Counted from the first letter of the stretch, positions 11,561 to 55,637 are shown. The stretch: 64,000 nt of DNA from a bacterium (GCA_030650415.1 JAUSEG010000025.1:11916-75915), one strand, 5' to 3'. The notes: generated by a model from the sequence alone, not told the origin. Numbers and translations: made by a program.

Positions 11561-11729
11561 TATTTTAATGTTTAATTGTAGCGCGAGCATAGAAAAATTT
11601 AGGATTTGCTGGAGCTTAAAATTTCTTTACAAACATTTCTTTCTCTTTTTACCATAGAAATTTTGTTGGAAATTTTAAGCTCCAGCCCTAAATTTTTCGT
11701 GGCGAGCGATATAATCAAACATTAAAATA
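11561..11729 (+). repeat. Family X long hairpin (divergent member)
   Basis: Arms are TATTTTAATGTTTAATTGTA / TATAATCAAACATTAAAATA. Loop motifs are GCGCGAGCATAG and CGTGGCGAGCGA. The inner stem is ~30 bp (AAAAATTTAGG.TTTGCTGGAGCTTAAAATTTC). Confidence 0.6.
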
Positions 11730-11754
11730 CTGGCCTTAAATTCAGCCCAGCTTT

Positions 11755-12660
11755 TTACGGCTGCAAAATATCTTCGGTTCGGCCATTTATAGATATAATA
11801 ACATTCTTAACCGTGGGAAATTGCTTTAAAGTTTCGGTTATTTGCGCGCGTATGGCTGAAACTCGGCATGAGCCTCCCATGTTTCTTTCTAAAGTTTCAT
11901 CAAAATCAACCTTAGCGGTTCCATCGGTAATAGTCAATTTTTGTATTTTCACGTTTGGATTGATACTGGTATAAAAACCTTGAGCCAAATCTGCCTGACT
12001 CGGGCCTTTTAATAATTCTTCGAGCGCGGCCCTGGCTATCGCCGCAGTTCTAACTACCTGCCGTTTAACCGGGAAGGCCTTTTCACAGGTTATGGCTTTA
12101 TCTAAATTATTGTTGCTGAAAAAGGCTTTAACCAACAGCGTCTGATTGGGGCTGATTAAAACCGAAATCTCTCTTTTTTTGTCATATTGGGGCAAGCCTG
12201 AAGGGTTATCATTTTTTAAAATTAGCTTGCCGGTAGTAGTCGCTTCAATCTGATAACTTATTTCTCCGATAAACGGCACAAAATTTTCAGTCATCCAATC
12301 GCTTTGCGCCTGCGCATAGCTCTGACCTAAGACCCTTCCCTGATCATCAACTAATTCAATCGGAAAACTTGCCTCAAAAAACCAACTGCCCCTGGCTTGA
12401 CCGATTACGGTTAAAGGGCTTTTAACCGTCTGGTTAGGTTGCGGCATTATTACCATCACTTCGTCCGGCTTCCGCTCGCCGCCTGCCTGTCCGGTAGGCA
12501 GGCAAACCGTCGTCGGCTTAGCCGCGCTCGGATTACCATGCTTAACCCATTGGCCATTTTGGCAAAGCCAAGCATCTTCATCGCTGCTAAAGAATCTAAT
12601 GCCAAGCGCTATAACCATTAAAACCAAAGCGACTGAACCAGCAATTTTTAATGTTTTCAT
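11755..12660 (-). CDS. Membrane-anchored Gmad2 Ig-like plus GerMN domain protein
   Basis: N-terminal TM helix. A Gmad2-like segment (SPLTVIGQARGSWFFEASFPIELVD) is followed by a GerMN-like segment (AALEELLKGPSQADLAQGFYTSI). Confidence 0.65.
   Translation of the reverse strand: MKTLKIAGSVALVLMVIALGIRFFSSDEDAWLCQNGQWVKHGNPSAAKPTTVCLPTGQAGGERKPDEVMVIMPQPNQTVKSPLTVIGQARGSWFFEASFPIELVDDQGRVLGQSYAQAQSDWMTENFVPFIGEISYQIEATTTGKLILKNDNPSGLPQYDKKREISVLISPNQTLLVKAFFSNNNLDKAITCEKAFPVKRQVVRTAAIARAALEELLKGPSQADLAQGFYTSINPNVKIQKLTITDGTAKVDFDETLERNMGGSCRVSAIRAQITETLKQFPTVKNVIISINGRTEDILQP
12481..12503. repeat. GC hairpin inside a CDS (GCCTGCCTGTCCGGTAGGCAGGC)
   Basis: 7-bp perfect stem (9 bp with one mismatch). 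It is translated as LPTGQAG in the linker of the Gmad2/GerMN protein. Confidence 0.7.
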
Positions 12661-12677
12661 ATTTTTAAAATTATTAA

Positions 12678-13964
12678 TTAATTTGACTTATCAGGCTGAT
12701 TAGGGACTGGCTGATCCTTCTTAAACATCTGCGTTATAATTCTAAAAATCAAAATCGAAAAAGTCAGCCAGAATAAGCCCAGAGCGAACCCTGCCATGAC
12801 ATCGCTAAACCAGTGAACTTTTAAATAAATTCTGGAAAAACCAACCAACAAAATTAAAAATATATTGCCGGCGATAAATAAATATTTCAACCATCTATTA
12901 TAAATTTTTTCAGTAAAAATAAATAAAACTAAAGAAAAAAAGATTAAGGCCATTAAAGAGTGCTGGCTGGGAAAGCTTAAGCCTGTTTCCATAACTAGGC
13001 CGGCTTCAGGCCGTGGCCGATTAATCAGCCACTTGGCTATAGTCCCAAGAACTAAGCCGCCGGCGCCGCTCATAAATATCAACCCGGCCTGATATTTCTG
13101 CCGCTTGATAAAAAAATAGACGGCAATAACCATTACGGCCGCCAACAAAATTTCCGGGCTGAAGACGGTTGAAATAAGAATCATTGTTTTATCCAACCAG
13201 GGCTGATAAAGCGAGTGGATGTTCTGGCTAAGCCAAAGGTCAAATCTATAGGTTGACTCCTTGTCAAAATAATCCTCAACCATTTTAGAAAAAATATAGA
13301 TTGAAAAAACGTTTAAGGTCAAATAATAAACATGATATTTGGCAAAAATCTGCCGGCGCTTATTAAGCAGGCGGTAGCCCAGCAGCGCCAAAATAATGGC
13401 GATTAGGGCCGCGATGATAAACCGGCCAAAATATTTTGAGGCAGTTTCAAATCCTTGGCCGAAAATATAACCGACTAAGACCGCCGAGACTGCCCAGACT
13501 ATGCCGCCACTCACGGCAAAAAAAATAAACCGGGGAAATTTAACTTTGGAAATACCGGCGATAAAAGCGGCCACCGCCCTGGTAAACGGACTGAAGCGTC
13601 CGATAACCAAAGTTTTGCCCGCGTTCTCCTCTACCAATTTCTTGGTTTTCTCAAACCTTTCATGATTAAGAAAAAAATGCTTTCCGTAATGAGCGATAAA
13701 ATCATGGCCATATTTTCGGCCGATAACATAAGCCAATAAATCGCCGACAATGGCGCCTGAAGCCGCCACGATAATTACCGCGTCCAGCCGCAACACGCCA
13801 AGCCAGGCTAAGAATCCGCCAAAAATAACTATCGTCTGACCGGGTATAAATGTCCCCAGCACCGGCAAGGTCTCAACTACAGCCGAAAGAAACAAAATCA
13901 AATACCCCCAATGATCAATCAGGGGCAAGGGTAAATTTAATAAAAAATCATTTAATGTCGACAT
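12678..13964 (-). CDS. DedA-family membrane protein fused to a PAP2 phosphatase
   Basis: The N-terminal half is DedA/SNARE-associated-like. The C-terminal half has PAP2 motifs (KWLINRPRP, PSQHS, SRIYLKVHWFSDV). Confidence 0.75.
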   Translation of the reverse strand: MSTLNDFLLNLPLPLIDHWGYLILFLSAVVETLPVLGTFIPGQTIVIFGGFLAWLGVLRLDAVIIVAASGAIVGDLLAYVIGRKYGHDFIAHYGKHFFLNHERFEKTKKLVEENAGKTLVIGRFSPFTRAVAAFIAGISKVKFPRFIFFAVSGGIVWAVSAVLVGYIFGQGFETASKYFGRFIIAALIAIILALLGYRLLNKRRQIFAKYHVYYLTLNVFSIYIFSKMVEDYFDKESTYRFDLWLSQNIHSLYQPWLDKTMILISTVFSPEILLAAVMVIAVYFFIKRQKYQAGLIFMSGAGGLVLGTIAKWLINRPRPEAGLVMETGLSFPSQHSLMALIFFSLVLFIFTEKIYNRWLKYLFIAGNIFLILLVGFSRIYLKVHWFSDVMAGFALGLFWLTFSILIFRIITQMFKKDQPVPNQPDKSN

Positions 13965-14070
13965 GAAAAATTAAATTATCGTGACTTAATTATAACATTA
14001 TTAGCTCAAATTTTACAATTACTAAAATATTGACAAAAAACAACAAATCGGACTAATATTTAATATTGCG

Positions 14071-14499
14071 GTGAATGCCGCAATGAAAAACAAATCTACC
14101 TCCGCTGAACAAAGGGGGCGAAACAAAACAAAAAGAATGAAAACGAAAACACAACGGATGCACCAAAATTCGATTGAGCAATTTGCCCAAAGAAGGCAGA
14201 AAACTGAGGATTATGATCGAGAATCAATGCTAGCCGCTCTCAACCACTCATGTTGCCGCAAACTCAATGCTTTGAGCATCGGCTGTTCACCCGATTACAG
14301 CAAGTTTGTTGCCACTCGCAAGGCGCGCAAAAAGGCGACATTTCAAGCCAAACTGGCATCAATGACCGAGTTTGATCCGACAATCGCCTCGGGCACACCG
14401 CAGCGAACCAACCGGTTAAAGCCGAAAAGCAAAACAGCGGCCAAAACCAAACCGGCTTCTCGGCGCAAAACCAGTGTCCGTCTGGGCAGTCTGGACTAG
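14071..14499 (+). CDS. Hypothetical basic protein (GC-rich island)
   Basis: 142-aa ORF, Lys/Arg-rich. It is preceded by TTGACA-17-CTAATA (14031-14059) and followed by the terminator at 14539-14571. I recognise no domain, and the start may be the ATG at 14083. Confidence 0.45.
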   Translation: MNAAMKNKSTSAEQRGRNKTKRMKTKTQRMHQNSIEQFAQRRQKTEDYDRESMLAALNHSCCRKLNALSIGCSPDYSKFVATRKARKKATFQAKLASMTEFDPTIASGTPQRTNRLKPKSKTAAKTKPASRRKTSVRLGSLD

Positions 14500-14538
14500 G
14501 TCTCTCGACCGCCGGCCTCGCTCTTTTTTAAACAACCA

Positions 14539-14571
14539 ACCCGCTTCTCGCAAAGAGGCGGGTCTTTTTTT
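14539..14571 (+). terminator. Rho-independent terminator
   Basis: Hairpin ACCCGC-ttctcgcaaagag-GCGGGT followed by a T8 run. Confidence 0.7.
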
Positions 14572-14610
14572 ATTTATATTATAGACAGTCGGCTAAAATT
14601 ATTAAACCAA

Positions 14611-15297
14611 CTAATCAACCTGGATAAGCTTCACCTCATCGCCAGTAATAGTGATAAAAGCCGACGGTCTTTCCACCCAGGAACCGGTATTAAAATATTT
14701 AATGCCGCCATTTTCCGCCGTGTTGATGATATGAGTATGCCCGCAAAAAACATAATCGGCCTTCATGAACCGGCCTAACCGCAAGGCGCCCCTGGCTACT
14801 TCGAAAGAGTTTCTTTTCCAAATCTGGCTGCGTTTTTTTATTTGTCTAACAATAAAATTTTCCGGATTAAAACGTTTTAACCAATCGTAAAAGAAAAACG
14901 CCAAACGGCTAATAATTATATTGTCATGCAAAAATCGATCAAACTGATGCCCATGAATAGCCAAAAACTTTTTATCGGCCGATGGCCAAACATATCTATT
15001 ACGCACTTTTATGCCAAGTAAGCGCGAGAGAATATTGGGGGTCGCGTCATGGTTGCCATGAATCCAAACCACTTCACAATGTTTTGACAATCTTCTTAAT
15101 CTGGAGAGAATCTCCCAGTGCTCGGCATGCAGACGATTAAAAGGCAAACCGTTTAAAATATCGCCGTTCAAAATTAATCTTTTATAACTGTAATCATTCA
15201 AAACTTTAAGAACTTCATGGCAACGAGTTGTTCTGTCGCCTAAATGAATATCGGAAATAACCAAAGTATCAATGTTTATTTTTTGCGGTTGAATCAT
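14611..15297 (-). CDS. Calcineurin-like metallophosphoesterase (LpxH-like family)
   Basis: Metallophosphoesterase motifs DIHLGD, GDILNG, GNHD, HGH and GHTH. Confidence 0.75.
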   Translation of the reverse strand: MIQPQKINIDTLVISDIHLGDRTTRCHEVLKVLNDYSYKRLILNGDILNGLPFNRLHAEHWEILSRLRRLSKHCEVVWIHGNHDATPNILSRLLGIKVRNRYVWPSADKKFLAIHGHQFDRFLHDNIIISRLAFFFYDWLKRFNPENFIVRQIKKRSQIWKRNSFEVARGALRLGRFMKADYVFCGHTHIINTAENGGIKYFNTGSWVERPSAFITITGDEVKLIQVD

Positions 15298-15372
15298 ACA
15301 TAAAGATTATAACAAAGGATTAAATTTTACAACAGAACCTACACCATCAAAAGGTGCTATAATTATATATAT

Positions 15373-16053
15373 ATGAATAGTTTCTTCTCAAAAAAGAATT
15401 TGTTAATTGCGATTTTTTCCGTTTTAATAATCGGCTTATTCTTATTCGTCTCAATATATTTTCAGCCCAAACGGGATATAATAATTCAGCCGCCAACTGC
15501 GGACAAAACTATTAATGCCGGTTCATCATCGCCCGATATCGCCACCAACTCGCCAAGACTGACCGAGCCATTAATTTCCGCCCCTAACCGAGTTACCAAA
15601 AAACCCTTTGGCATTTATATCACGCCACAGACTTCTCCGGTTAGTCCGGAAAAATTCACCGGCTATCATACGGGCGTGGATTTTGAAATCTTGCCGGGCG
15701 AAGAGAATAAAGAGGTAACCGTCTCGGCCATTTGCGCGGGCAGACTGCTCTTAAAAAAATCCGCCTCCGGCTACGGCGGCGTAATAATCGAGTCCTGCGA
15801 ATTAGACGGCCAAGAGGTTACAATCATCTATGGCCACCTTAAACTTTCCAGCATCGCTCTTAAAGTCGGGCAGACTGTAGCGGCTGGAGAAACCATCGGT
15901 ATTTTAGGCCGGGGCTATTCCAGCGAAACCGGCGGCGAAAGAAAGCATCTGCACCTAGGAATTCATCGGGGCGCGTCTACAAACCTTTTAGGATATGCGC
16001 AAGACAAAAACCTTCTAGGCAACTGGTTTAATATCTTGGATTATTTAAGATAA
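15373..16053 (+). CDS. M23 family metallopeptidase
   Basis: N-terminal TM helix, with HTGVDF and HLHLGIH motifs. Confidence 0.8.
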   Translation: MNSFFSKKNLLIAIFSVLIIGLFLFVSIYFQPKRDIIIQPPTADKTINAGSSSPDIATNSPRLTEPLISAPNRVTKKPFGIYITPQTSPVSPEKFTGYHTGVDFEILPGEENKEVTVSAICAGRLLLKKSASGYGGVIIESCELDGQEVTIIYGHLKLSSIALKVGQTVAAGETIGILGRGYSSETGGERKHLHLGIHRGASTNLLGYAQDKNLLGNWFNILDYLR

Positions 16054-16093
16054 AGTGAAAAACCAAAATCTTTGACCGGCGTCAATCTTCGGT

Positions 16094-17035
16094 TTACTTA
16101 ATTTTACAAATCTTTTTAAGCGCCGCTAGATCATCGGCCGTTATTTTTTCATTCCCGCTCTCATTAAGGCGATACATAATCGCTTGGGGATTATCTAAAT
16201 GATCAATCCCTAAAGCATGCCCTAACTCGTGAGCCAAAACTCTGATTAAAGCCTCGCGATCGTCGAATTGATAGATATCTATTCTCTCGCCGGCTGCGTC
16301 TCGGACATATTGACCCTCCTGAAATTCGCCCGAACTTTTTTCCCCGACGGTATTGTAATTGCCAACATTTAAATTTAAATCGCGAATTAATCTATTTATA
16401 ACGCTGGCCACGGCGTTAACATCTTCAACCGTCTGATTAAGCGCCGCTTGTTTTACTTTAATCGATTCCACTAAACTATTTAAAGCTTTTCTTTCCTGCT
16501 CTAAAATGGCGTACTCTTCCTGATTTACTCCGCCTCGGTTGTTGGCCGCCTTAACTTCCGCTTCGTAGTTGGCTTTTTGCTCTTCGTAATATTCAACCGT
16601 ATCATCAAACTCCTTTTTCTGCGTGTTATAAATTTTTTCAAATCCATCATATTTAATTTTTAAACTTTCATAGCCGGCTTTATCATTATGAATGCTAATG
16701 CCCAGCGATTTTAGTTTATCCGTGGCTTCTTGGCGCGAATCATAAATTAAATTAATTTTTAAAGCTCCGCCGGCCGAATAATTAAATAATTTTTTATCTG
16801 CCGGCTCTTGCCAGATTTGCGCCGCCTGGTCTACCGCCTTTAAAAAATCTTCGCGGCTTAAGCCGAATTTAGGATTAAACTCTCCCAAAGAATATTCAAT
16901 CGGCTTGGCGCAGGGGTTAATTATTTCAATTAAATTATTTTCGGCCAGTTTTATATCATCTTCAAAATAAAAAACCAAGCCGCTAATTAGCGCCAAGGCA
17001 ATTACAATCTGAATAACTTTATAAAACTTTTTCAT
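16094..17035 (-). CDS. Matrixin-like (M10) zinc metalloprotease with a coiled-coil insert
   Basis: HELGHALGIDH zinc-binding motif followed by a Met-turn (AIMY). An N-terminal TM helix is present. Confidence 0.75.
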   Translation of the reverse strand: MKKFYKVIQIVIALALISGLVFYFEDDIKLAENNLIEIINPCAKPIEYSLGEFNPKFGLSREDFLKAVDQAAQIWQEPADKKLFNYSAGGALKINLIYDSRQEATDKLKSLGISIHNDKAGYESLKIKYDGFEKIYNTQKKEFDDTVEYYEEQKANYEAEVKAANNRGGVNQEEYAILEQERKALNSLVESIKVKQAALNQTVEDVNAVASVINRLIRDLNLNVGNYNTVGEKSSGEFQEGQYVRDAAGERIDIYQFDDREALIRVLAHELGHALGIDHLDNPQAIMYRLNESGNEKITADDLAALKKICKIK

Positions 17036-17086
17036 AACCTGCCTCCTCTTTAGCTTAAGTATAATCCACGGGTATAAATATGAGCC

Positions 17087-18538: not shown

Positions 18539-18635
18539 AAAAAAATAAAAAAAGCGCTTGTCCCTTAAGGAGTTAATCGCGCCAACTTGGTTCAGTATAA
18601 CAGATTTTTAAAATTTTACAATAACAGGATTATAT

Positions 18636-19253: not shown

Positions 19254-19265
19254 TTTATTTGATAA

Positions 19266-20531: not shown

Positions 20532-20561
20532 ATAAAGACGCCAAATAAAAAATTATAGTAT

Positions 20562-20712
20562 TTGCCAGCCAAAGATATTTATTTTGAGCGCATACAAAAT
20601 CGTCGCATTTTTTATTAAAATTACTCAGCTACCTAAGTCAATTATAATACAATTTTATTAAAAAATGCCCAGATTTTGTCTTAAGTGAAAAATAAATATC
20701 TTTGGCTGGCAA
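20562..20712 (+). repeat. Family X long hairpin
   Basis: The 24-bp arms are perfectly complementary: TTGCCAGCCAAAGATATTTATTTT / AAAATAAATATCTTTGGCTGGCAA. Conserved GAGCGCATAC lies on the 5' side and GTCTTAAGTGA on the 3' side, with an inner stem AAAATC-GTC-GCATTTTTTA. Confidence 0.8.
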
Positions 20713-20849
20713 GTTTCGCCTTGGGTAAAAAAACTAAAATCTTTGTTCGACAATACTAAACCATTATATTTGTCTAAACCTTACCACTTTTACGGCCAAA
20801 AAACAATTTTTAGCTTGCTTAAACGCCTAAAAATATTTATACTGACCTC

Positions 20850-21380
20850 ATGCAACTACCCTATAGAAAAGCTGGAAAATATACTCATCTAAAGCCCGAC
20901 CAACATCTGACCGAAGCGAAGTACAACGAGCTTAAAAATAAGCTGGATCGGCTTAAATTTAATCGTCCAGGCGCGGCCAACGAGGTTAAGCGGCTGGCTG
21001 AATTCGGCGATTTTTCGGAAAACGCCGAATACCAAATCGCTAAAGGTCGTCTCCGAGGCATAAACCAAAGAATTCTGGAAATTGAAGATCATTTAAGGCG
21101 CGCGGTTATAATTAAGCCCAACAAAAACAGCAAAACGGTTCAATTAGGCTCAAACGTCACCGTTCTAATTGCCGGTACACCCCCACACTTATTTCATAAG
21201 TGTGGGGGTAAAGAAAAAACCTATTTAATCTTGGGTTCGGCGGAAACCAACCCGGGCCGCGGCGTTATCTCCAGACGCTCGCCAATCGGTTCGGCTCTTA
21301 TCGGCAAGAAAATCGGTGACCAGATAAAAATTAAACTGGCTGACAGGGTGGTGGAATATAAAATTATAAAAATTGAATAA
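20850..21380 (+). CDS. greA: Transcription elongation factor GreA
   Basis: Coiled-coil N-terminal domain (DFSENAEYQIAKGRL) and a C-terminal domain (ISRRSPIGSALIGKKIGD). The ORF contains the palindromic insert at 21179-21209. Confidence 0.88.
   Translation: MQLPYRKAGKYTHLKPDQHLTEAKYNELKNKLDRLKFNRPGAANEVKRLAEFGDFSENAEYQIAKGRLRGINQRILEIEDHLRRAVIIKPNKNSKTVQLGSNVTVLIAGTPPHLFHKCGGKEKTYLILGSAETNPGRGVISRRSPIGSALIGKKIGDQIKIKLADRVVEYKIIKIE
21179..21209 (+). repeat. Family E palindrome inside the greA CDS
   Basis: ACCCCCACACTTAT-TTC-ATAAGTGTGGGGGT. It is translated as PPHLFHKCGG. Confidence 0.85.
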
Positions 21381-23193: not shown

Positions 23194-23204
23194 TTACCCT
23201 TATT

Positions 23205-23306
23205 TGTCATTGCGAGCGACCGCAGGGAACGAAGCAATCTCACGTACTTGGATATTAACCAGAGATTGCTTCGTCGCCACGAGTACGTGTCTCCTCGCAA
23301 TGACAG
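23205..23306. repeat. Family A palindromic element (TGTCATTGCGAG...GAAGCAATCTC // GAGATTGCTTC...CTCGCAATGACA)
   Basis: The outer and inner inverted repeats can both be read directly. The element fills the sufS-dsbA-like spacer. Confidence 0.85.
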
Positions 23307-26848: not shown

Positions 26849-27571
26849 ATGTATTCAGAAAAAATAAACCCCGTTAGAAAAATGTCATTTACACCATTAG
26901 AAAAAATTTCTAATAAATTTTCTAACGGGGTAAATTTTAAAATAATTATCGCCCTGACTCTCTATCTGGTTTCGCTCTTCGCCTCTAACACTCTCGGCCT
27001 TAAACTCATGCCCTTTTTCTTCGGCACTCATCTATCGGTCGCGGTTTTTTTCTTTCCCTTTGTTTTTTTGACCACCGACGTCATCGGGCAGGTCTATGGC
27101 AAACCAATGGCTAAAAATTTTGTTTGGGCCGGTTTTTTGTCCATTCTGATATTTTTAATCTACTCGGTTATTTCCATAATGGCGCCTTGGTCTGGAGATA
27201 ATTTTATGCCTAAAGAATGGTTTGACACGATTTTCGGCGTTTCTTTCCGCATGTCTATAGCTTCGCTCCTCGCCTACATTATCGGCGAATACCAGGATAT
27301 TCTATCGTTTTTCTTTTTCAAAAACAAAATGAACGTAAAAGCTTTCTGGTTAAGATCTAATTTATCAAATCTCTGGTCGCAATTAATCGATACCCTGATT
27401 TTCATGTTTGTAGCTTTCCTGGGAATTTATTCGGTCAAAACCATTCTCTTAATCAGCCTGCCCTGGTGGCTTTATAAAGTCGGCATGGGCCTAATCTATA
27501 CCCCGCTTTCTTATTTAGGAATATATTTACTGCAACATGAAAATTCAAGCGATAAAAACCAGAATATTTAA
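26849..27571 (+). CDS. yhhQ: Queuosine-precursor transporter (YhhQ/DUF165 family)
   Basis: Multi-TM protein. FFFPFVFLTTDVIGQVYGK and the overall pattern resemble E. coli YhhQ. The start is uncertain (26849 or 26882), and the first ~30 codons overlap a palindromic element. Confidence 0.7.
   Translation: MYSEKINPVRKMSFTPLEKISNKFSNGVNFKIIIALTLYLVSLFASNTLGLKLMPFFFGTHLSVAVFFFPFVFLTTDVIGQVYGKPMAKNFVWAGFLSILIFLIYSVISIMAPWSGDNFMPKEWFDTIFGVSFRMSIASLLAYIIGEYQDILSFFFFKNKMNVKAFWLRSNLSNLWSQLIDTLIFMFVAFLGIYSVKTILLISLPWWLYKVGMGLIYTPLSYLGIYLLQHENSSDKNQNI
26866..26934 (+). repeat. Family D palindromic element (variant) over the yhhQ 5' end
   Basis: AAACCCCGTTAGAAAAA ... TTTTCTAACGGGGTAAA. The ATG at 26882 lies in the loop. 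Confidence 0.75.
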
Positions 27572-36899: not shown

Positions 36900-37490
36900 A
36901 TGGCTGTTAATACTAAAATTTACGACAAACAATTTTTTAATAACACTATTGAGCTTGAAAGCCAATCTGCTCAAGCGATGGTGAAAACATTAATTAAGCA
37001 TTTCAAGCCGAAATCAGTGGTTGATATTGGTTGCGGTGCTGGTATTTATTTAGCCGAATTTAAAAAGTTTAATATTAAAATACTGGGCTTTGACGGCTCG
37101 CCGGCGGCCATCATCGCCTCCCCGGTTGGTAATATGATCAAATTACATGATTTATGCCAACCACTTAAGTTAAATTGTCAATTTGATTTATGTCTATGCC
37201 TCGAAGTGGCCGAACATTTAGAAAAAACTTGCGCTGACATCCTGGTCGACACTTTAATAGGCCTTTCCAAAACCATGGTCTTTACTGCCGCCACGCCCGG
37301 CCAAGGACCGATAAGTATCGGGCATGTTAATGAACAACCGCCTGAATATTGGCTAAAATTATTCAAACGAAGAAATTTTTTAATTAATAAAATCTTAACG
37401 GAGAAAATTAAGCGAGAAATGATTGATCAAAACGTGATTTGGTGGCTGACTAAAAATTTAATGATATTTAAAAAACATTCACCCCGTTAG
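36900..37490 (+). CDS. Class I SAM-dependent methyltransferase
   Basis: Motif I VVDIGCGAGIY. The last codons overlap the 5' arm of a palindromic element. Confidence 0.7.
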   Translation: MAVNTKIYDKQFFNNTIELESQSAQAMVKTLIKHFKPKSVVDIGCGAGIYLAEFKKFNIKILGFDGSPAAIIASPVGNMIKLHDLCQPLKLNCQFDLCLCLEVAEHLEKTCADILVDTLIGLSKTMVFTAATPGQGPISIGHVNEQPPEYWLKLFKRRNFLINKILTEKIKREMIDQNVIWWLTKNLMIFKKHSPR

Positions 37491-37592
37491 ATATTTATTA
37501 TAATTATATTGGTTGTTCTATTAAAGCCCTATTAATTATAAAGACCGACGGGACATAAAAATATGAAAATAAATAAATCTAACGGGGTAAAA
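37478..37592 (+). repeat. Family D palindromic element spanning the methyltransferase stop and the glgA-2 start
   Basis: TTCACCCCGTTAGATATTTATT ... AATAAATAAATCTAACGGGGTAAA. The ATG at 37563 lies inside the element. Confidence 0.85.
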
Positions 37593-45962: not shown

Positions 45963-46159
45963 TGTCATTGCGAGGAGCGCCTTTAGCCCCGGGCTTGACA
46001 CGGGGGACGAAGCAATCTTTTACCTGTCATTCCCGAAGCCGCAGGCTGTCGGGAATCCAGGAGGAAGCAATAAGAATGCGTTTCTAGATTCCCGCCTGCG
46101 CGGGAATGACAAAAAGAGTGAGATTGCTTCGCTTCACTTCGTTCCGCTCGCAATGACAG
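45963..46159. repeat. Nested element: family A arms enclosing two family B hairpins
   Basis: The A-left arm is 45963-46017. The B hairpins are GTCATTCCCGAAGCCGCAGGCTGTCGGGAATCCAGG (46024-46063) and GATTCCCGCCTGCGCGGGAATGACA (46085-46111). The A-right arm is 46116-46159. Confidence 0.85.
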
Positions 46160-46170
46160 TTATGTAATTT

Positions 46171-47583: not shown

Positions 47584-47590
47584 TTTCACC

Positions 47591-47801
47591 TGTCATTGCG
47601 AGGAGGCCGTACTCGGCCGACGCGGCAATCTATTTGCTTGTCATTCCCGCGCAAGCGGGAATCCAGGAGAAAACAGTAAAAACGCATTATCTTCTTTAAA
47701 CCCTTTGTGAAATAAATGTTTTAAACAAGCGGGCGAGTAGTAAAAATATCTCTACTACTCCCTCCTGGATTCCCGATAGCCTTTGGCTTCGGGAATGACA
47801 G
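47591..47801. repeat. Family A left arm plus a family B inverted pair
   Basis: TGTCATTGCGAGGAGG..GCGGCAATCT is followed by TGTCATTCCCGCGCAAGCGGGAATCCAGGAG ... CTCCTGGATTCCCGATAGCCTTTGGCTTCGGGAATGACA. Confidence 0.8.
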
Positions 47802-47810
47802 AAAAAAAAT

Positions 47811-48305
47811 ATGCCCAAACTAATAAAATTATCATTTACCATTTTATCTATTCTTTTAGCGTTTTTTGTTATTGATCCAGCGCTGGCTGGTTCTCCTCTT
47901 GATGGCTATACTTTTGAAAATTTTGATGGAGAAAACCCACAATCAGATGGTCTTCTACCAACCGCGCACGGTCCAAAATGCCCTGACGGCTCGCCAAATT
48001 GCGGCAACTATACTTTAAATGATATGGTGGGTTTGGTTTTAAAAATATCCGAATTTATCTTAGGTCTGGTCGGTTCGCTGGCTCTATTGGCCTTTGTGTA
48101 TGGCGGTATTATGTGGATAATTTCAGCCGGCAACGCCGAGAGAGTAGATATAGGAAAGAAAGCCATCATCGGCGCGGTGGTCGGCTTAGCTATAGTCTTT
48201 ACGAGTTTTATGATTATCCAATTGGTCTATAGCGCTTTAGGAATTCCACGCGCCGATAAAGGAGAATGGTCTGTTTCCAGTTGGACCTCTGGTTGGTCTA
48301 AATAA
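47811..48305 (+). CDS. TrbC/VirB2-like (type IV secretion pilin-like) membrane protein
   Basis: Signal peptide followed by two C-terminal hydrophobic helices (LVGSLALLAFVYGGIMWIISAGN..AIIGAVVGLAIVFTSFMII). The architecture matches pilin-like proteins common in CPR genomes. Confidence 0.45.
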   Translation: MPKLIKLSFTILSILLAFFVIDPALAGSPLDGYTFENFDGENPQSDGLLPTAHGPKCPDGSPNCGNYTLNDMVGLVLKISEFILGLVGSLALLAFVYGGIMWIISAGNAERVDIGKKAIIGAVVGLAIVFTSFMIIQLVYSALGIPRADKGEWSVSSWTSGWSK

Positions 48306-48347
48306 ACAGCAAAATTTTATAAATATTAATCTAAGCTAAATATTGTA

Positions 48348-48521
48348 TGTCATTGCGAGGAGCGTAAGCGACGAAGCAATCTCTGGTTAGAAACACTTAA
48401 CCAATCTAAAATTAAATCTCTTAAATCAAAATTAAACTTGTTAATCAATGCTTTTTCTTTATTTTTTATTATTCTTTCTTGCCAGAGATTGCTTCGCTTC
48501 TTGCGGAAGCTCGCAATGACA
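48348..48521. repeat. Family A palindromic element with a long AT-rich centre
   Basis: TGTCATTGCGAGGAGCGTAAGCGACGAAGCAATCTCTGG ... CCAGAGATTGCTTCGCTTCTTGCGGAAGCTCGCAATGACA. Confidence 0.85.
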
Positions 48522-48528
48522 ATATTAA

Positions 48529-49206: not shown

Positions 49207-49299
49207 CCGACCGTTATTGCCAATAAACATAAAAAGGTTTATTATTAATTAAGGGAGGTTAAATATGGCCTTCTTTTAATTTACTAACTTTTCCTAAAT

Positions 49300-50340
49300 A
49301 TGGATAATAAAGCTAAAACCGATAAAGAAAACGATGTAGCCGAAGAAAAAACTCAAGCCGTCATGTCCGCGGTAGAGCAAATAAAAAGCAAATTCGGCGA
49401 CGGTGCGATTATGAAATTCGGCGATACCATAAAATCAGATGTTGACGCCGTGCCGACCGGCTGTTTGTCGCTTGATATGGCGCTCGGCATCAACGGCGTG
49501 CCGCGCGGCCGGATTATTGAAATTTTTGGACCCGAAGCTTCGGGTAAGACTACTTTAGCCCAACACATCATCTCGGAAGTGCAAAAACTCGGCGGCGTGG
49601 CGGCTTTTATCGACGCCGAGCACGCGCTTGATCCGGAATACGCTTCTAAAATCGGTATTAACATCAAAGAACTCTTAATCAGCCAGCCGGACACGGGTGA
49701 ACAGGCCTTGGAAATTTTGGAAACTTTAGTCCGTTCCAACGCGGTTGATGTGGTAGTGGTTGATTCCGTCGCCGCTTTAGTCCCGCAAAAAGAAATTGAG
49801 GGCGATATGGGCGACTCGCATATGGGGCTCCAGGCCAGATTAATGAGCCAGGCTTTAAGAAAATTAGCCGGCATAATTTCCAAAACCAAGACCGTAGTGA
49901 TTTTTATTAACCAAATCCGCATGAAAATCGGCGTCTTTTTCGGCAATCCGGAAACTACCACCGGCGGTATGGCTTTAAAATTTTATTCTTCGGTCAGAAT
50001 TGAAGTCAGGCGAGCGGCGCAGATTAAGCAAGGCGACAAAATTATCGGCAACCGGGTAAAATGCAAAATCGTAAAAAATAAAGTAGCCGCGCCTTTCCGC
50101 GCCTGCGAATTTGATATTATGTATAACGAGGGCATTTCCATCTCCGGTGATTTACTCGATACCGGCGTGGTTTTTAACATAGTAAATAAATCAGGCAACT
50201 CGTACAGCTACGGCGAGATAAAATTGGGCGTCGGCCGAGAAAACGCCAAGAGCTTTTTACGAGCCGACAAAAAACTGATGAAAGAAATCAGAAAACGCGT
50301 CCTAAGCGAAGCCAGCGCTAAGGAAGTGGAAGAAAAATAA
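49300..50340 (+). CDS. recA: Recombinase RecA
   Basis: Walker [12 protein letters not shown], with L1/L2 regions and overall pattern canonical for RecA. Confidence 0.95.
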
Positions 50341-50625
50341 AAATTCTAAAAATCATTACCTACTAATAAAAATTATGAAAAAACAATTTGAAGATCTCGT
50401 CCAACAACCAGAGAATAAAGAAAGTGAAAAGTAGTTTATATTAACCATGACTCCAATACAAAAAACTGACCTAATTAGAATGATAAATTATGATTTAAGC
50501 CAACCGTTAGGACCAGAACATGGCAACAGATTAAATAATTTATTTAAAAAATTAACTGGGAAAAATCATGATAATTGGAATAAAGAATAACTTTTCAAAA
50601 ATATAAATATCTATTACACATAATA

Positions 50626-50656
50626 AAAACGCCTCGTAGCTTTACGGGGCGTTTTT
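50626..50656. terminator. Bidirectional rho-independent terminator between convergent genes
   Basis: AAAAACGCCTCG-tagcttta-CGGGGCGTTTTT. Confidence 0.65.
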
Positions 50657-50677
50657 ATAAATCTAAATCTCTAAATA

Positions 50678-51244
50678 TTAATTCTGCTCCCTGCCGACAT
50701 ATTCTCCGGTATCCGTGTTAACTATAACTACTTCGCCTTCGCTGATGAACATCGGAACGCTGATTTGCATGCCGGTTTCTAATTCAACGACCTTGGTTAC
50801 GTTACCGGCTGAATTTCCTTTAACTCCGGGAGGAGCGCTGGTGACTTTTAGGGCAATTTTGATGGGTAGCTTTAGGGCGACTGTCTTACCTTGGAAATAC
50901 AAAACATCCACATCCATGCCTTCTTTTAAATAGCCAATTTTATCGCCAACTTGTTCTAAGGGCAGACCGGTTTGTTCAAAGGTTTCATTATCCATGAATG
51001 AGGCTTCGGTTTCGGTTTTATATTGATAATTTGCCGCCCGGGTTTCGGTTTCAGCTTCTTCGATCTTTTCGCCCTGCTGGAAAGATTTTTCTAAAATATT
51101 GCCATTAACCAAATTCTTTAACTTAGTTTTTAAAACCGCCCGGCGTTGCGCCGTCTTATTATGATCGGTTTTGATAACTACGTAAGGCTCATTACTAATT
51201 TGAACCAAAACACCGACTTTTATATCACCCTGGTTTAACATCAT
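50678..51244 (-). CDS. efp: Elongation factor P
   Basis: 188 aa with the KTAQRRAVLKTKLKNL region and a three-domain length. Confidence 0.88.
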   Translation of the reverse strand: MMLNQGDIKVGVLVQISNEPYVVIKTDHNKTAQRRAVLKTKLKNLVNGNILEKSFQQGEKIEEAETETRAANYQYKTETEASFMDNETFEQTGLPLEQVGDKIGYLKEGMDVDVLYFQGKTVALKLPIKIALKVTSAPPGVKGNSAGNVTKVVELETGMQISVPMFISEGEVVIVNTDTGEYVGREQN

Positions 51245-51314
51245 AACTTTAAACTTTTCGTAGCCCGGCCGTCAAAGCCACGCGCTTTATTATTTTCTAA
51301 TTAATAAATATTAA

Positions 51315-51536
51315 TTATTTATTCACGAACGGTATAATGGCCATAACGCGAGCGCGCTTGATGGCGATGGCTAATTTACGCTGATGCTTAGAGCAAGTGC
51401 CGGTTCTTTTCTTCGGTAAAATCTTACCGTAAGAATTAATAAAACGGCGCAAAAAATTAGCGTCTTTATAATCAACCTCTTTTAAATTATTTACGCAGAA
51501 ATAACATTGCTTGGCTTTTTTTATTGTCTCTTCCAT
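51315..51536 (-). CDS. rpsR: 30S ribosomal protein S18
   Basis: CYFC..VDYKD...ILPKKRTGTCSKHQRKLAIAIKRAR. Confidence 0.92.
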   Translation of the reverse strand: MEETIKKAKQCYFCVNNLKEVDYKDANFLRRFINSYGKILPKKRTGTCSKHQRKLAIAIKRARVMAIIPFVNK

Positions 51537-51547
51537 AAGACTTTCTT

Positions 51548-51634
51548 TGTCATTCTGGAGCGTAACGAAGTGGAGCGATAGAATCTCATTACCGCAGAGA
51601 TGCTATCGGTCGCCGCGCTCCCTCCAGCATGACA
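51548..51634. repeat. Family C palindromic element between ssb and rpsR
   Basis: TGTCATTCTGGAGCGTAACGAAGTGGAGCGATAGAATCTC // GAGATGCTATCGGTCGCCGCGCTCCCTCCAGCATGACA. Confidence 0.85.
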
Positions 51635-51636
51635 TA

Positions 51637-52110
51637 TTAAAATGGTATATTTTCAACTCTGATTTCTTCTTCGCCTTGGCTCTCCCCGCCAGAAGTACCG
51701 GCGGCCTCATCAACATTAATTACCGGCTCGCTTGGCATAGGCGGCTGATCATTTCGTTCAATCGATCCTCTCGATCCCGCTCCGGCGCGATCAAGCATAA
51801 TCATATTTTCGGCGACAATCTCCGTGCGGTAGCGTTTAACGCTATCCTGCCCGACCCAGTCGCGAGTTTGCAATCTGCCTTCAAGATAAATTTTCGCGCC
51901 TTTCTTTAAATACTGTCCGCAAATTTCGGCCAGTCTGGCCCAAGCGACAATATTATGAAATTCCGCTTTTTCGTGTTTCTGTCCCGATTGATCGGTCCAA
52001 ACAAAATTAGTGGCCACGGAAAATGAAGCGACGGTTTTGCCGTTTGGCGTGGTTCTAACTTCCGGGTCGCGAGTTAAAAAACCGATGATCATGGCTTTGT
52101 TTAAATTCAT
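51637..52110 (-). CDS. ssb: Single-stranded DNA-binding protein
   Basis: OB fold (MNLNKAMIIGFLTRDPEVRTTPNGK...), a Gly/Ser-rich linker, and an acidic tip ending IPF. Confidence 0.92.
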   Translation of the reverse strand: MNLNKAMIIGFLTRDPEVRTTPNGKTVASFSVATNFVWTDQSGQKHEKAEFHNIVAWARLAEICGQYLKKGAKIYLEGRLQTRDWVGQDSVKRYRTEIVAENMIMLDRAGAGSRGSIERNDQPPMPSEPVINVDEAAGTSGGESQGEEEIRVENIPF

Positions 52111-52190
52111 AAAGGTTGTTTTTGGCGCCGCTTGGCTGGGGGCGAAGCGACGGAAAATTTATTATTAAAAAATTTTAAACGTAAAAATAA

Positions 52191-52718
52191 TTATAGCAAA
52201 TTATCGGTTTCCAAAATTTTATCAAGCTTTTCATCCAAATCTTTTAGATCAACCTTGCCTTTATCCGCGGCTTTTACGCTAGGAGCGGTTTCAGCCGGCG
52301 TAACGCGTCGCGCGGAAATTTTCTCTTCGACTAATTTTTCTTCCTTAATATTTCTGGCCGCGATTTTTTCCGCGATTTTTTTATCATGCAAAATTTGCTC
52401 CTCGGTTTTTACTTCCTTCGAAACAACTTGCTGTCTTAAAATTTCACTCATCATGCGCAAGGCGTGATCAACATTAATAAGGTTTACGCCCGGCATATCA
52501 AACTCAACTAAAATATAATAGCCAAAACGAAAACCCTTAATCGGATAAGCCAATCTTTTTTTCCCCAAGCTAATACTCTGGGTAATTTTACCCTGATTGT
52601 TGGTAATTAATAAATTTACTTTCTCCATGATCGGCTTTATTTCATCCTCGCTGAACTGGTTGGAAATTAAATAAAGCAATTCATAATGGGGGGTCTCGCC
52701 TGATTTTACTTTTGACAT
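52191..52718 (-). CDS. rpsF: 30S ribosomal protein S6 with a long charged C-terminal extension
   Basis: The PHYELLYLIS...RLAYPIKG pattern is typical of S6. I prefer the ATG at 52718 to the track start at 52742. Confidence 0.85.
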   Translation of the reverse strand: MSKVKSGETPHYELLYLISNQFSEDEIKPIMEKVNLLITNNQGKITQSISLGKKRLAYPIKGFRFGYYILVEFDMPGVNLINVDHALRMMSEILRQQVVSKEVKTEEQILHDKKIAEKIAARNIKEEKLVEEKISARRVTPAETAPSVKAADKGKVDLKDLDEKLDKILETDNLL

Positions 52719-53051
52719 AGTTGCAATTAAATAATTAAACAAAATTTTATGGCCGTAGAGCTTTGCTCGCTATAAAATTTTATTTAATACATTATAATTT
52801 TTGAAAGTATTGAAAACTTTTTTAAAAAAGTTTTCAAAGGGTTAAAAAAATCCCAGATATTCTCTAAGTTCCCCAAAAAAATCGGGGCTATATCGGGATT
52901 GAGAATACCTTTAATCCGGTCGAAACCGGACTCGCGCCTCTTTGACAAAGCGCCTGGAAAAGGTTAAGTATTAAATTGTGTTTTTACTTTATCATAGGCT
53001 CTTAAAAATTGCAAGAGCCGGATTCTTGTGCTAAAGTTTAATCAAAAGCGC

Positions 53052-53159
53052 AGGTTGTGCAATAATGTTGGTTTTGAGCGCATATGAAATTGTAGCAATT
53101 TTTTTTAAAAATTGCCCAAATTTCATCTTAAGCGAAAAACCAACATTATTGCACAACCT
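53052..53159 (+). repeat. Family X long hairpin
   Basis: The 24-bp arms are perfectly complementary: AGGTTGTGCAATAATGTTGGTTTT / AAAACCAACATTATTGCACAACCT. Conserved GAGCGCATAT and ATCTTAAGCGA are present, with an inner stem GAAATT-GTA-GCAATTTTT. Confidence 0.8.
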
Positions 53160-53171
53160 TATTAAAACAGT

Positions 53172-54458
53172 ATGAAATATTTTTTCATTTTAGGCACCAA
53201 TCCAACCCTATCATTAGCCGAATTAACCACGGTAATTAATCATGGAAAATTTTCTCTGATACAAAAAGATATCGCCATTTTAGAATGCGCTGAAAAAATC
53301 GAAACCAGTGTCATAAATAAAATCGGCGGGACCATTAAGATCGGTTCTGTCCGCGAAGAAATTGATTCTTACGCCGTTAAAGATATCTTAAATTCAATCG
53401 CCAATTTCGCCAAACCGGAAAAAATCGAAACAAAATTTAACTTCGGCATTTCTTTTTATGGCAAAATAAAAATTCACCCCGTGAAATCCGCTCCCCAGTT
53501 GAATCCGACAAAGTCGGTGCGAAGCAATTCAACGGGGCAAGAAGCGGGAATTCCGCTAAGAGCGGAATTATTTCACGGGGTAAATCTGAAAGTTCTAGGT
53601 ATGAAACTTAAAAAATTGCTTAAAGAGTCGGAAATTAGTAGCCGCTGGGTTATAAGCAAAGAACCAACTTTGTCCAGTGTAGTGGTTGAACAAAATAAAT
53701 TAATTACGGACAGGGGAGTGGAAATTGTGATTATTCAATTCAATAAAAAACTTTACATAGGAAAAACTTTAGCCGTTCAACCGTTTAAAGATCTATCTTT
53801 CCGCGATTATGGCCGGCCGGCTCGCGACTCTCACTCTGGCATGCTACCGCTAAAACTAGCTCAAATAATGATAAATATGTCGGGCGCACGCCTTAATGAA
53901 ACTATCTTAGACCCGTTTTGCGGTTCAGGCACAATTGTAACCGAAGCTATGCTTATGGGATATAGTAATATTATCGGCGCCGACCTTTCCGATCGAGCGA
54001 TTACCGACACCAGGACAAATATTGAGTGGATTAAAAAAAATTACGAGCTACCGATTACAAATTTAAATTTAAACAACATTGATGCGACACAAATTTCAAA
54101 ACAAATTAAGCCAGACTCGGTTGACGCCATCATCACCGAACCATACTTAGGTCCGCAGCGAGGACGGTTTGATGTAAGTAAAACAATCAACGAGCTGGAA
54201 CGGCTTTATTCCCGAAGCTTATCTGAATTTAATAAAATCTTAAAACCGGGCGGAAAAATAGTTATGGTCTGGCCGGTATTCTGCGGCCAATTTAAAAATA
54301 TTTTTCTTAATCCGGATTTAAACGACCTGAAAATTATCAACCCCATACCGGAAAATCTACAAACTAATATCTTCATAAAAACAACTGTCCGCCAAACTAT
54401 TATCTACGGCCGCGAACTGCAAAAAGTCTGGCGGGAGATAGTGGTGTTAGAGAAATAA
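53172..54458 (+). CDS. SAM-dependent RNA (m2G-type) methyltransferase with an N-terminal THUMP-like region
   Basis: Motif I DPFCGSGTIVTEA and motif IV ITEPYLGP. The ORF contains the 112-bp palindromic insert at 53473-53584. Confidence 0.65.
   Translation: MKYFFILGTNPTLSLAELTTVINHGKFSLIQKDIAILECAEKIETSVINKIGGTIKIGSVREEIDSYAVKDILNSIANFAKPEKIETKFNFGISFYGKIKIHPVKSAPQLNPTKSVRSNSTGQEAGIPLRAELFHGVNLKVLGMKLKKLLKESEISSRWVISKEPTLSSVVVEQNKLITDRGVEIVIIQFNKKLYIGKTLAVQPFKDLSFRDYGRPARDSHSGMLPLKLAQIMINMSGARLNETILDPFCGSGTIVTEAMLMGYSNIIGADLSDRAITDTRTNIEWIKKNYELPITNLNLNNIDATQISKQIKPDSVDAIITEPYLGPQRGRFDVSKTINELERLYSRSLSEFNKILKPGGKIVMVWPVFCGQFKNIFLNPDLNDLKIINPIPENLQTNIFIKTTVRQTIIYGRELQKVWREIVVLEK
53473..53584 (+). 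repeat. Family D-type outer palindrome with nested hairpins, inside the methyltransferase CDS
   Basis: TTCACCCCGTGAAAT ... ATTTCACGGGGTAAA encloses CCCCAGTTGAAT/ATTCAACGGGG, CCGACAAAGTCGG, and GCGGGAATTCCGC/CCGCTAAGAGCGG. Confidence 0.8.
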
Positions 54459-54459
54459 T

Positions 54460-55506
54460 ATGCCAAAAACTAAGAAACCGAATCGCCGGCCGGACAACCC
54501 GGCCCATTCCGTGGCTTCTCTATTTAAACAGCTCGGACGGGAAGAAAAAATTAAAGTGCGGCTTGAGCCGGCCTGGCAACAGGTGGGAAAAATTACGCGC
54601 CCGGACGGCACCGCGACCTATTTTCGAGGCACTAATTTTGATTTAAACGGCCTGGGCGCCACGGAAATCGCGCGGGACAAGGGTTACGCCGCTTACTTTT
54701 TAAAACTGGCCGGCTTCAGGGTTATCCCGGGCAAAACCTTTTATTCGCCTAAATTTGCCAGACAGCTAAACAGCCGGAACGACCCGACCGCGGCTTATGA
54801 ATACGCGAAAAATAAAATCGGCTGGCCAGTAGTAGTTAAACCGAATAGCCTTTCACAAGGGCGGCTGGTTTGCGTGGCTGATGACAAACCAACTTTCGCG
54901 CAAGCGGCGCAGAAAATTTGCCGATTAGACCGAGTCTTTTTGGTTCAGCCTTTGCTTCTCGACCATGATTATCGGGTGGTAATTCTAGACGGCGAAGTTA
55001 TTTCCGCTTATGAAAGACTGCCGCTTTTCGTTATCGGCGACGGCATTGCCACCATCGACGAGCTGCTAAATAAAAAACAAAAAAAATACGAAGCGAGCGG
55101 CCGCGATACGACCATAGACAAGCGAGACTTTCGCATTGATCTAAGGCTTAAAAGGCATTATCTTAATCGCGCCTCCGTTTTAGCCAAAGGGCAAATTTTT
55201 AATTTACTGGACAATCGCAATTTATCAACCGGCGGCGAAGCCATTGATGCAACCGACGAAATTCACTCTTCGTATAAAAACCTGGCCGTTAAGATCGTCC
55301 GCGGCATGGGCCTTCGGTACTGCGGCGTTGATTTAATGGTGCAAAGCGACATCAAAAAACCCCTTGATCCTCGGACAAATAATTATTACGTTATAGAAAT
55401 AAATTCGGCTCCGGGCATTGATAATTACGCCAAATCGGGCGCCAAGCAGAAAAAAATTGTTAAAGAAATTTACCGGAAAATTTTAAAAAAATTAAACAAC
55501 CAATAA
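54460..55506 (+). CDS. ATP-grasp ligase (RimK/cyanophycin-synthetase-like)
   Basis: PVVVKPNSLSQGRLV, and the C-terminal YVIEINSAPGI pattern of ATP-grasp enzymes. The start is 1 nt after the methyltransferase stop. Confidence 0.6.
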   Translation: MPKTKKPNRRPDNPAHSVASLFKQLGREEKIKVRLEPAWQQVGKITRPDGTATYFRGTNFDLNGLGATEIARDKGYAAYFLKLAGFRVIPGKTFYSPKFARQLNSRNDPTAAYEYAKNKIGWPVVVKPNSLSQGRLVCVADDKPTFAQAAQKICRLDRVFLVQPLLLDHDYRVVILDGEVISAYERLPLFVIGDGIATIDELLNKKQKKYEASGRDTTIDKRDFRIDLRLKRHYLNRASVLAKGQIFNLLDNRNLSTGGEAIDATDEIHSSYKNLAVKIVRGMGLRYCGVDLMVQSDIKKPLDPRTNNYYVIEINSAPGIDNYAKSGAKQKKIVKEIYRKILKKLNNQ

Positions 55507-55637
55507 GGCGAGGAGGTTTATTTATCGCTTAGATAAAATTTGAGTATTTTTTCTTAAAATTATAATAAACTGGGTCTGGATAATTTTAAGAAAAAATAAT
55601 ACAATTTTATATGCGCTCTAAATAAACTTCCTCGCCT
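55506..55637 (-). repeat. Family X long hairpin (opposite orientation)
   Basis: The reverse complement reads AGGCGAGGAAGTTTATTTA GAGCGCATAT AAAATT GTA ... AAATTTT ATCTAAGCGA TAAATAAACCTCCTCGCCT. Confidence 0.75.

Follow-up and report, generated by a model that had tools for sequence, protein, structure and literature searches.

Three hairpins in a 64,000-nucleotide stretch of bacterial DNA (GCA_030650415.1, JAUSEG010000025.1:11916-75915; hereafter the window, with positions counted from its first letter) belong to a lineage-restricted, multi-copy, non-coding hairpin repeat of Patescibacteria (Parcubacteria/Falkowbacteria-like genomes), ∼108-170 nt in length, which is termed family X here. Motif scans and a covariance model located ∼40 non-redundant copies in metagenome-assembled genomes (MAGs) of Parcubacteria/Patescibacteria, and the family is previously undescribed, as judged by Rfam and the searchable literature. 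The reading that we favour, albeit tentatively, is that family X is a non-autonomous DNA hairpin similar in kind to REPINs and attC sites, which would act as folded single-stranded DNA and be read by a putative enzyme. This reading is based upon outer arms with near-perfect Watson-Crick pairing, a strand-specific tolerance of wobble pairs, and a polarity that follows replication and not transcription. It is also based upon the clean presence or absence of whole copies without target duplication, flipping of the core, the restriction to one lineage, and the many other nested hairpin repeats in the same genomes.

Three Hairpins of the Window Belong to One Family

An original prediction made from the sequence of the window had proposed four hairpins, and all four are present (Table 1). 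Three of these, c2, c3, and c4, form one family. A covariance model built from 36 non-redundant copies from outside the window (alignment A4, R1) scored c3 at 118.8 bits, c2 at 101.1 bits (plus strand), and c4 at 84.0 bits (minus strand) on the family strand, with values of 66.1, 46.2, and 44.3 bits, respectively, on the opposite strand. The likeness of c2, c3, and c4 is far beyond chance, since these scores come from a model built outside the window and scans with the motifs alone yield dozens of hairpins in which flanks left unspecified by the search are complementary. The remaining hairpin, c1, scored only 28.8 bits (20.1 bits on the opposite strand, a partial match at 11605-11692) and carries the differing motifs GCGAGCATAG ... 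GCGAGCGA, so that its proposed membership of the family is not upheld. The 9-mer GAGCGCATA by itself showed no enrichment in the window; the signal of family X resides in the combined architecture.

The plan GAGCGCATAY ... (R)TCT(T)AAGYGA, originally described as common to all four hairpins, holds for c2, c3, and c4 but not for c1. Its elements are, in order, GAGCGCATAY, an inner stem of 8 bp, a 3x3 loop (loop 2, with GTA or GTC opposite CCA or CTC), a second stem, a variable apex, and (R)TCT(T)AAGYGA. Pairing between the final two bases of the 5′ motif and the initial two of the 3′ motif leaves GAGCGCAT opposite CT(T)AAGYGA as the true loop 1. In this loop AGCG lies opposite AGCG, a pseudo-symmetric arrangement with two Watson-Crick pairs flanked by G.A appositions. 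The G-C/C-G mini-helix so formed is G.U in c2; across the alignment, 32 copies have GC at mini-helix pair 27/142 and 4 have GU, and a diverged copy (L014:1010-1176) carries an A-U double change at the same pair. The four G.U variants support this small helix within loop 1.

The core is almost invariant over the 36 copies and the arms are the most variable part of the element, which bears out the unusual combination of a conserved center and variable ends first noticed in the window. The inner stems also vary between copies with their pairing kept, as had been observed. Paired cells in A4 amounted to 96.2%, compared with 76.9% after shuffling and 38-52% when partners were slid by one to three columns. 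Double-sided changes were found in 33 of 43 pairs, and RNAalifold, with no structure given, returned the same fold with 41 pairs, 33 of which were compensated.

Very strong covariation in all three helices would also be a property of a structured RNA. A multi-copy small RNA, or a processing or stability element in operon transcripts, in which RNase III would cut the 22-24-bp helix between cistrons and a protein would bind the conserved loops, is a somewhat unlikely but serious alternative. Loops with G.A-type appositions, as deduced from the sequence, are typical of RNA motifs. On the other side stands the result of the Rfam 15 search, in which just two tRNAs in the window reached the gathering threshold and family X was unmatched; permissive thresholds gave generic plant microRNA-precursor models only, far below threshold (MIR807, 45.5 versus 113 bits). 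Loops of the kink-turn, loop E, hairpin-ribozyme, and twister types were also compared by eye and rejected, given that there is no 3-nt bulge beside the G.A pairs and no Rfam match.

The Outer Arms Belong to the Element

The outer arms of c2 and c3 are 24 bp long and 100% complementary, as reported previously, and the outer arm of c4 is 23 bp with one A.C mismatch. Across the family, arm length is steady at 22-26 bp and most arm positions show three to five pair types over the 36 copies. The arm consensus is GCCGGACAAAGATTTTGGTTTT, with a majority pair at nearly every position, and the arm ends conform to GYYGGAY ... RTCCRRC. By direct reading of the sequences, the arms of c2 and c3 are identical to that of the L007 copy at 19/24 and 15/24 positions, respectively, and to each other at 12/24. 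All of the differences from L007 (5/24 in c2 and 9/24 in c3) are compensated in the partner arm. The view that the arms are unrelated between copies is contradicted by the family-wide consensus and by the c2/L007 identity. Because they share a consensus and their changes are compensated, the arms belong to the element and are fast-evolving yet paired. A further candidate explanation, that the arms are guides or spacers acquired elsewhere, was ruled out by the common consensus.

Approximately 96% of arm pairs are Watson-Crick and only ∼3% are G.T, which fits DNA pairing better than RNA; a G.U content of only ∼3% of arm pairs is a point against the structured RNA discussed above. Within the arms, G.T behaves as a tolerated intermediate and not as a neutral pair.

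It had also been suggested that the core was inserted in, or created, an inverted duplication of flanking DNA; in a variant of this reading, an unrelated sequence would have drifted into pre-existing terminator hairpins. Both versions are scarcely credible. The arms of c2, c3, and c4 do look unrelated if only the window is considered, and when the L056 copy was aligned with the empty L068 site using MAFFT, 12 of 14 inner-arm bases aligned to local sequence, but this resemblance is within chance for AT-rich spacers. By contrast, the arms of ∼40 copies can be traced to a single consensus in which the majority pair is specific to the position, a U-tract of the terminator type is not present beside them, and the empty c2 and c3 sites described below lack an arm copy.

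One Strand Is Favored, and Its Orientation Follows Replication

Mismatches on the family strand, counted over all helices minus the outermost two arm pairs, comprised 40 G.T and 11 A.C (p = 6e-5). This excess of G.T is opposite to the prediction of a mutation bias that makes the family strand C-rich, and therefore points to selection for folding of the family strand. Wobble-compatible mismatches that are four times commoner on one strand would also be consistent with a structured RNA, as would the behavior of the folding energies: RNA parameters gave the family strand the greater stability in 28 of 36 copies, and DNA parameters showed no difference between strands.

The position of the copies relative to genes can be read in two ways with respect to RNA. 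All copies lie between genes, frequently just 4-30 nt away from a stop or start codon and within operons (L069, for instance, has the order infB-rbfA-X-nrnA-X-clpP), which is where an element processed in operon transcripts would be expected. Their orientation relative to neighboring genes, however, is random. The element shared its strand with the gene whose 3′ end faces it in 17 cases and did not in 21. Of the copies that separate co-directional genes, 13 were antisense and 9 were sense; 7 copies were found at convergent ends and 3 at divergent starts. The flanks of copies showed no conserved sequence, no convincing promoter, and no U-tract terminator, which again weighs against an RNA. An outward promoter on the opposite strand (TGGGCA-18-TACAAT) was considered and rejected as weak, the genes on that side not being preferentially co-oriented (19 versus 17).

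The family strand is the C-rich strand of the locus in 33 of 40 copies (p = 4e-5), or in 34 of 41 if the L045 copy is included; within the window c4 is the exception. The sign of the skew is equal in genes of both strands at a locus, so it reflects replication and not a coding effect. The leading strand is usually G-rich, which places the folding strand on the leading-strand template. An orientation that tracks replication skew is not what a structured RNA would require. The structured-RNA proposal of the original prediction is thus retained in part: covarying helices and one favored strand (G.T 40 versus A.C 11) are confirmed, but a cis-acting RNA is disfavored by the random gene orientation, the lack of promoter and terminator, the skew, and the flipped core described below.

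A replication-linked, transcription-independent orientation would equally be expected of a host chromosomal DNA site whose core is bound, on duplex or cruciform DNA, by a nucleoid, replication, or segregation factor with KOPS- or Ter-like polarity. This explanation is considered improbable. The copies are strictly intergenic among housekeeping genes and purifying selection acts on the core where copies are orthologous, both in keeping with such a site, and the pseudo-symmetric loop motif (AGCG on both strands), to judge from its sequence, would suit a dimeric protein. Binding to a duplex, however, needs neither self-complementary arms of 22-24 bp nor a strand-specific tolerance of G.T, and the same sites are without copies in close relatives. 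The very uneven copy number between related genomes and the match of the exact pattern in only 4 of 185,579 species representatives also argue against it.

Whole Hairpins Are Gained or Lost, and Copies Change in Place

Comparison with relatives revealed sites without the element. The c3 site, in the methyltransferase/rpsF spacer, is empty in L086 and L083 (YchF 85-86% identical); once exactly the 108 nt of c3 are taken out, the spacer of the window is 33 nt long, and that of L086 is 36 nt. Similarly, the c2 site upstream of greA is empty in the relative L087. No arm-like sequence was found at the empty c2 and c3 sites, so the arms do not pre-exist there as single copies, a point against the inverted-duplication reading of the original prediction. 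No target duplication was detected, either as a direct repeat in the 12-nt flanks of 34 copies or in the filled/empty comparison at c3. The whole hairpin is the unit of insertion or deletion. Relatives that differ in presence or absence have proteins that are 80-86% identical, and this variability, together with the lineage restriction, is difficult to reconcile with a structured RNA.

Elsewhere, copies are kept at orthologous sites with flanks 70-82% identical. Between the orthologous copies L018 and L064, four changes in the arms are fully compensated and one in an inner stem is compensated as well; the loops are identical and the flanks ∼80% identical. In the orthologous pair L007/L059 the arms are in place and the core is inverted. 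These two pairs show that the loops are better conserved than the genes around them, and recombination or template switching between arms evidently occurs. Conservation of loops at orthologous sites is compatible with an RNA, but flipping of the core with retention of the element is not readily so.

Distribution of Family X

The covariance-model search found homologues outside the window, including further diverged copies, as anticipated for a genuine family. When species-representative genomes were scanned with just the two motifs, 42 matches were obtained, of which 10 were true copies: seven in Parcubacteria bacterium GW2011_GWC2_42_12 and one each in Patescibacteria STB_78, a Falkowbacteria MAG, and a contig labeled as gammaproteobacterial that evidently belongs with the others. 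Copy number varies widely among related genomes. A metagenome scan yielded 35 loci, all of them hairpins, and the flanks that the search had not specified were complementary over 20-26 bp in 35/35, which constitutes an independent test that the architecture is real. The long-apex subfamily of c4 was also found at L057:10308-10474, L069:12383-12549, L014:1010-1176, and L084:3496-3638. Overall, copies are dispersed among housekeeping genes (greA, rpsF, ychF, infB-rbfA-nrnA-clpP, and valS).

Three scans of viral contigs returned nothing or just chance matches within coding sequence, and BLAST of c3 against phages and plasmids gave no match; a viral, phage, or plasmid origin was ruled out on this basis. 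The searchable literature on the motifs and on repeats of these phyla contains no account of family X sequences.

Several individual loci deserve comment. The contig L045 (CAZLKB010000001.1), labeled "uncultured Gammaproteobacteria," carries a family X copy scoring 120.7 bits, and the label is probably wrong. At three separate loci (Table 1) the 3′ half of inner stem 1 is CCAGAAATTAG and not CCCAAATTTCR, such that stem 1 cannot fully form. The copy at L054:1754-1900(-) has a 45-nt insertion within the 5′ side of loop 1, with the arms and the rest of the core intact. A Logan contig of the same organism as the window (L001) begins at the inner edge of the c2 arm (L001:1 = window 20582), and L051 is chimeric: the 5′ half of one copy runs into the L007 copy, of which it has the 3′ half and the flank. 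Hairpins of this kind break short-read assemblies, and masking or modeling them is advisable when such genomes are curated.

Genes around the Copies and the Search for a Partner Enzyme

The gene contexts of the hairpins are as originally described. c2 has on one side the start of a minus-strand gene for an HI0933-like flavoprotein and on the other the plus-strand gene greA. c3 is 13 nt upstream of a methyltransferase ATG, inside a divergent region shared with rpsF, and c4 is at the convergent ends of an ATP-grasp gene, the stop codon of which is within the arm, and ychF. The neighbors of the window copies (greA, rpsF, ychF, and the methyltransferase and ATP-grasp enzyme genes) are thus ordinary housekeeping genes. 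The listed greA open reading frame (window 20850-21380) encodes 176 amino acids and its close homologues mostly have 165; judging from this difference in length, it is probably 11 codons too long at the 5′ end, with the true start near 20883.

Pfam scans were performed on 60 filtered open reading frames of the window of at least 90 amino acids and on the genes between paired copies. The window encodes housekeeping functions only, including RecA, RuvC, and SSB, and the genes between paired copies are likewise housekeeping only. Orphan half-motifs were tried as traces of an autonomous partner and were found to be chance coding matches.

Sister Family X2 and Other Hairpin Repeats

Homologues of c1 were found at L086:2740-2960(-) and L088:750-918(-). 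Their plan comprises outer arms, GCGAGCATAG, and a AAAAATTTAGG stem ... CCTAAATTTTTC nnn GCGAGCGA, the same layout as that of family X, and c1 is assigned from these sequence features to a related but distinct sister family, X2. The L086 copy of X2 lies downstream of ychF, the site held by c4 in the window, and is without paired outer arms.

Several further families of nested hairpin repeats are present in these genomes (Table 1). In family W, differing outer arms surround a common core, and variable perfect arms with a conserved lopsided core therefore recur across families. The 5′ loop of the MITE-like (miniature inverted-repeat transposable element-like) family Y, GAGCG(T/C)nAGCGA, is equivalent to both loop motifs of family X joined. 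Two Y copies hold a nested second hairpin, GTCATTCCCG...CGGGAATGAC (46026-46110 and 47640-47799), another end of which is at 56733. At the intergenic site where L071 has a family X copy, L081 has families Y and Z instead.

A separate structure precedes the S6-SSB-S18 operon. The rpsF leader (window 52760-53000, minus strand) is strongly conserved with L086:4230-4470 and L083:7740-8020, and contains a hairpin, GGTATTCTCAATCCC...GGGATTTTTTT, that encloses CCCCG...CGGGG. By its sequence it looks like a ribosomal-protein leader or attenuator; comparison with Rfam gave nothing at E ≤ 1 above noise.

Table 1. Hairpin elements of the window and related loci, with the parts of c2 and c3
Feature	Position	Strand	Description
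c1	11560-11730	+	Sister family X2, outside family X
c2	20562-20712	+	Family X, 151 nt, long-apex variant
c3	53052-53159	+	Family X, 108 nt, canonical short form
c4	55502-55641	-	Family X, 140 nt, long-apex subfamily with TCTAAGCGA
c2, 5′ outer arm	20562-20585	+	TTGCCAGCCAAAGATATTTATTTT, pairs with 20689-20712
c2, loop 1, 5′ side	20586-20593	+	GAGCGCAT, opposite CTTAAGTGA at 20680-20688
c2, inner hairpin	20594-20679	+	Stem 1 ACAAAATC/GATTTTGT, loop GTC/CCA, stem 2 GCATTTTTT/AAAAAATGC, 46-nt variable apex
c3, 5′ outer arm	53052-53075	+	AGGTTGTGCAATAATGTTGGTTTT, pairs with 53136-53159
c3, core	53076-53135	+	GAGCGCAT, ATGAAATT, GTA, GCAATTTTT, apex, AAAAATTGC, CCA, AATTTCAT, CTTAAGCGA
Family X, stem-1 variant	L056:7289-7395; L069:11312-11423; L072:11979-12097		
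Family W	L089:4620-4735; L087:1436-1624	+; +	Perfect outer arms of 24-26 bp, differing, around GTG(C)GAGGACTGTTTGAGC ... GCGAGTTCCGCA
Family Y	23205-23305; 45963-46158; 47591-47815; 48348-48521; solo end 29667		MITE-like, termini TGTCATTGCGAG...CTCGCAATGACA
Family Z	26861-26938; 37480-37589; 59821-59943; L081:6400-6520		Hairpin ends ACCCCGTTAGA...TCTAACGGGGT

Discussion

If family X is a mobile DNA hairpin, its active form would be one folded single DNA strand, the family strand, the conserved loops of which would be read by a putative trans-acting enzyme of the HUH/Y1 or tyrosine-recombinase type. The helix would set the ends of the unit, which would explain why complete hairpins are cleanly gained or lost with no target duplication. 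The arms, a helix of approximately two turns (22-24 bp) almost without sequence requirement, would serve just to define these ends. Arm complementarity may be kept in two ways: only foldable copies would persist or propagate, and template switching or gene conversion could restore one of two closely spaced inverted repeats from the other, a process that could also flip the core. Copies would survive mainly where the folding strand is the leading-strand template. We infer the preference for single-stranded DNA over RNA, the mobility, the enzyme, and the correction mechanism.

A number of observations weigh against this interpretation. The G.U excess and the G.A-type loops are equally expected of an RNA. 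Pfam revealed no gene for a transposase, recombinase, or HUH enzyme either in the 64-kb window or beside copies, and ∼450 kb of loci contained no longer autonomous version and no split motif pairs. A single MAG, LCCP01, splits 4 to 4 on the skew rule, and the folding strand is opposite to the active strand of the IS200/IS605 elements considered below. No two copies of the same genome have identical arms, and there is consequently no sign of recent bursts. Finally, loops that outlast flanking genes at orthologous sites suggest a host-level function over a purely selfish repeat.

Families X, X2, W, and perhaps Y may even represent a new class of single-stranded-DNA element in bacteria of the candidate phyla radiation (CPR), a doubtful proposition at present. 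Long, perfect, variable arms and GAGC/GCGA-type lopsided loops are common to these families. The geometry of a ∼24-bp helix, and not sequence, would determine where such elements end, and a putative enzyme would recognize the common GAGCG...AGCGA loop on the folded strand. The site would then be a structure with a conserved lopsided core that is processed at the replication fork.

CPR bacteria have tiny genomes in which repeats and non-coding elements are almost undescribed. Family X reverses the usual rule of miniature repeats, in that its center is conserved and its ends are variable yet perfectly paired. The wobble-tolerant strand, the replication polarity, and the clean gain or loss of whole hairpins together suggest a life cycle as a single strand that is coupled to replication. 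If a partner enzyme exists, it would carry out structure-reading processing of DNA (or RNA) with sequence-independent ends, of interest for mobile elements and possibly as a tool.

Comparison with Known Systems

Classical MITEs such as Correia, ERIC, and RUP have conserved transposase-binding termini and flanking target duplications. Like family X, they are palindromic intergenic repeats of 100-170 bp that are present or absent between relatives and occur inside operons, and by analogy both may be co-transcribed as long hairpins that RNase III could cut. Family X, however, has neither conserved termini nor target duplications, and its arms are all divergent within one genome.

IS200/IS605 elements carry subterminal hairpins that differ at the two ends, lack inverted termini, and have their active strand on the lagging-strand template (PMC5027513, PMC3333891). 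Their ends and miniatures resemble family X in the lack of target duplication, in a fork-linked orientation, and, by analogy, in being single-strand hairpins that a protein may read. Family X differs in being a single hairpin with fully paired termini.

The REPINs (REP-BIME) and their RAYT enzymes (TnpA-REP, Y1 HUH) are built on a REP unit in which GTAG lies immediately 5′ of an imperfect palindrome that carries a required mismatch (PMC3116915, PMC3333891). Both REPINs and family X are short, non-coding, multi-copy, and strictly extragenic, and both form long single-strand hairpins preserved by compensatory changes, with no coding capacity and no classical target duplication. Recognition of REP requires a conserved unpaired feature beside a stem, and the candidate counterpart in family X is GTA plus the first G of stem 2. 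This GTA and the G that opens stem 2 are almost invariant in family X, but they are internal and overlap the stem, such that the similarity to GTAG is a resemblance only. REPINs have conserved ends and a variable middle, in contrast to the conserved center and variable ends of family X, and the host phylum is different. Pfam identified no RAYT (Y1 HUH) gene in the 64-kb window plus fragments.

In sedentary integrons, the folding strand of attC sites is on the leading-strand template (PMC5371416). The attC sites share with family X an imperfect hairpin in which unpaired features are conserved, a terminal structure that varies and thereby determines length, and one functional strand, and by analogy both would work through recognition of the folded single strand more than of sequence. 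The RYYYAAC/GTTRRRY boxes of attC are not in family X, in which AAC/GTT occurs in a few copies only; family X conserves far more, a core of ∼50 nt, and has an extra outer helix of 22-24 bp. Its copies are dispersed and do not form same-orientation cassette arrays of the kind found beside intI, and an integrase was not found in the window. What family X has in common with attC, a structure-defined hairpin with the folding strand on the leading-strand template, is thus a working principle and not membership. As far as can be judged from sequence, family X fails the defining sequence features of both systems and so belongs to neither REPINs nor attC sites, yet it shares the logic of both.

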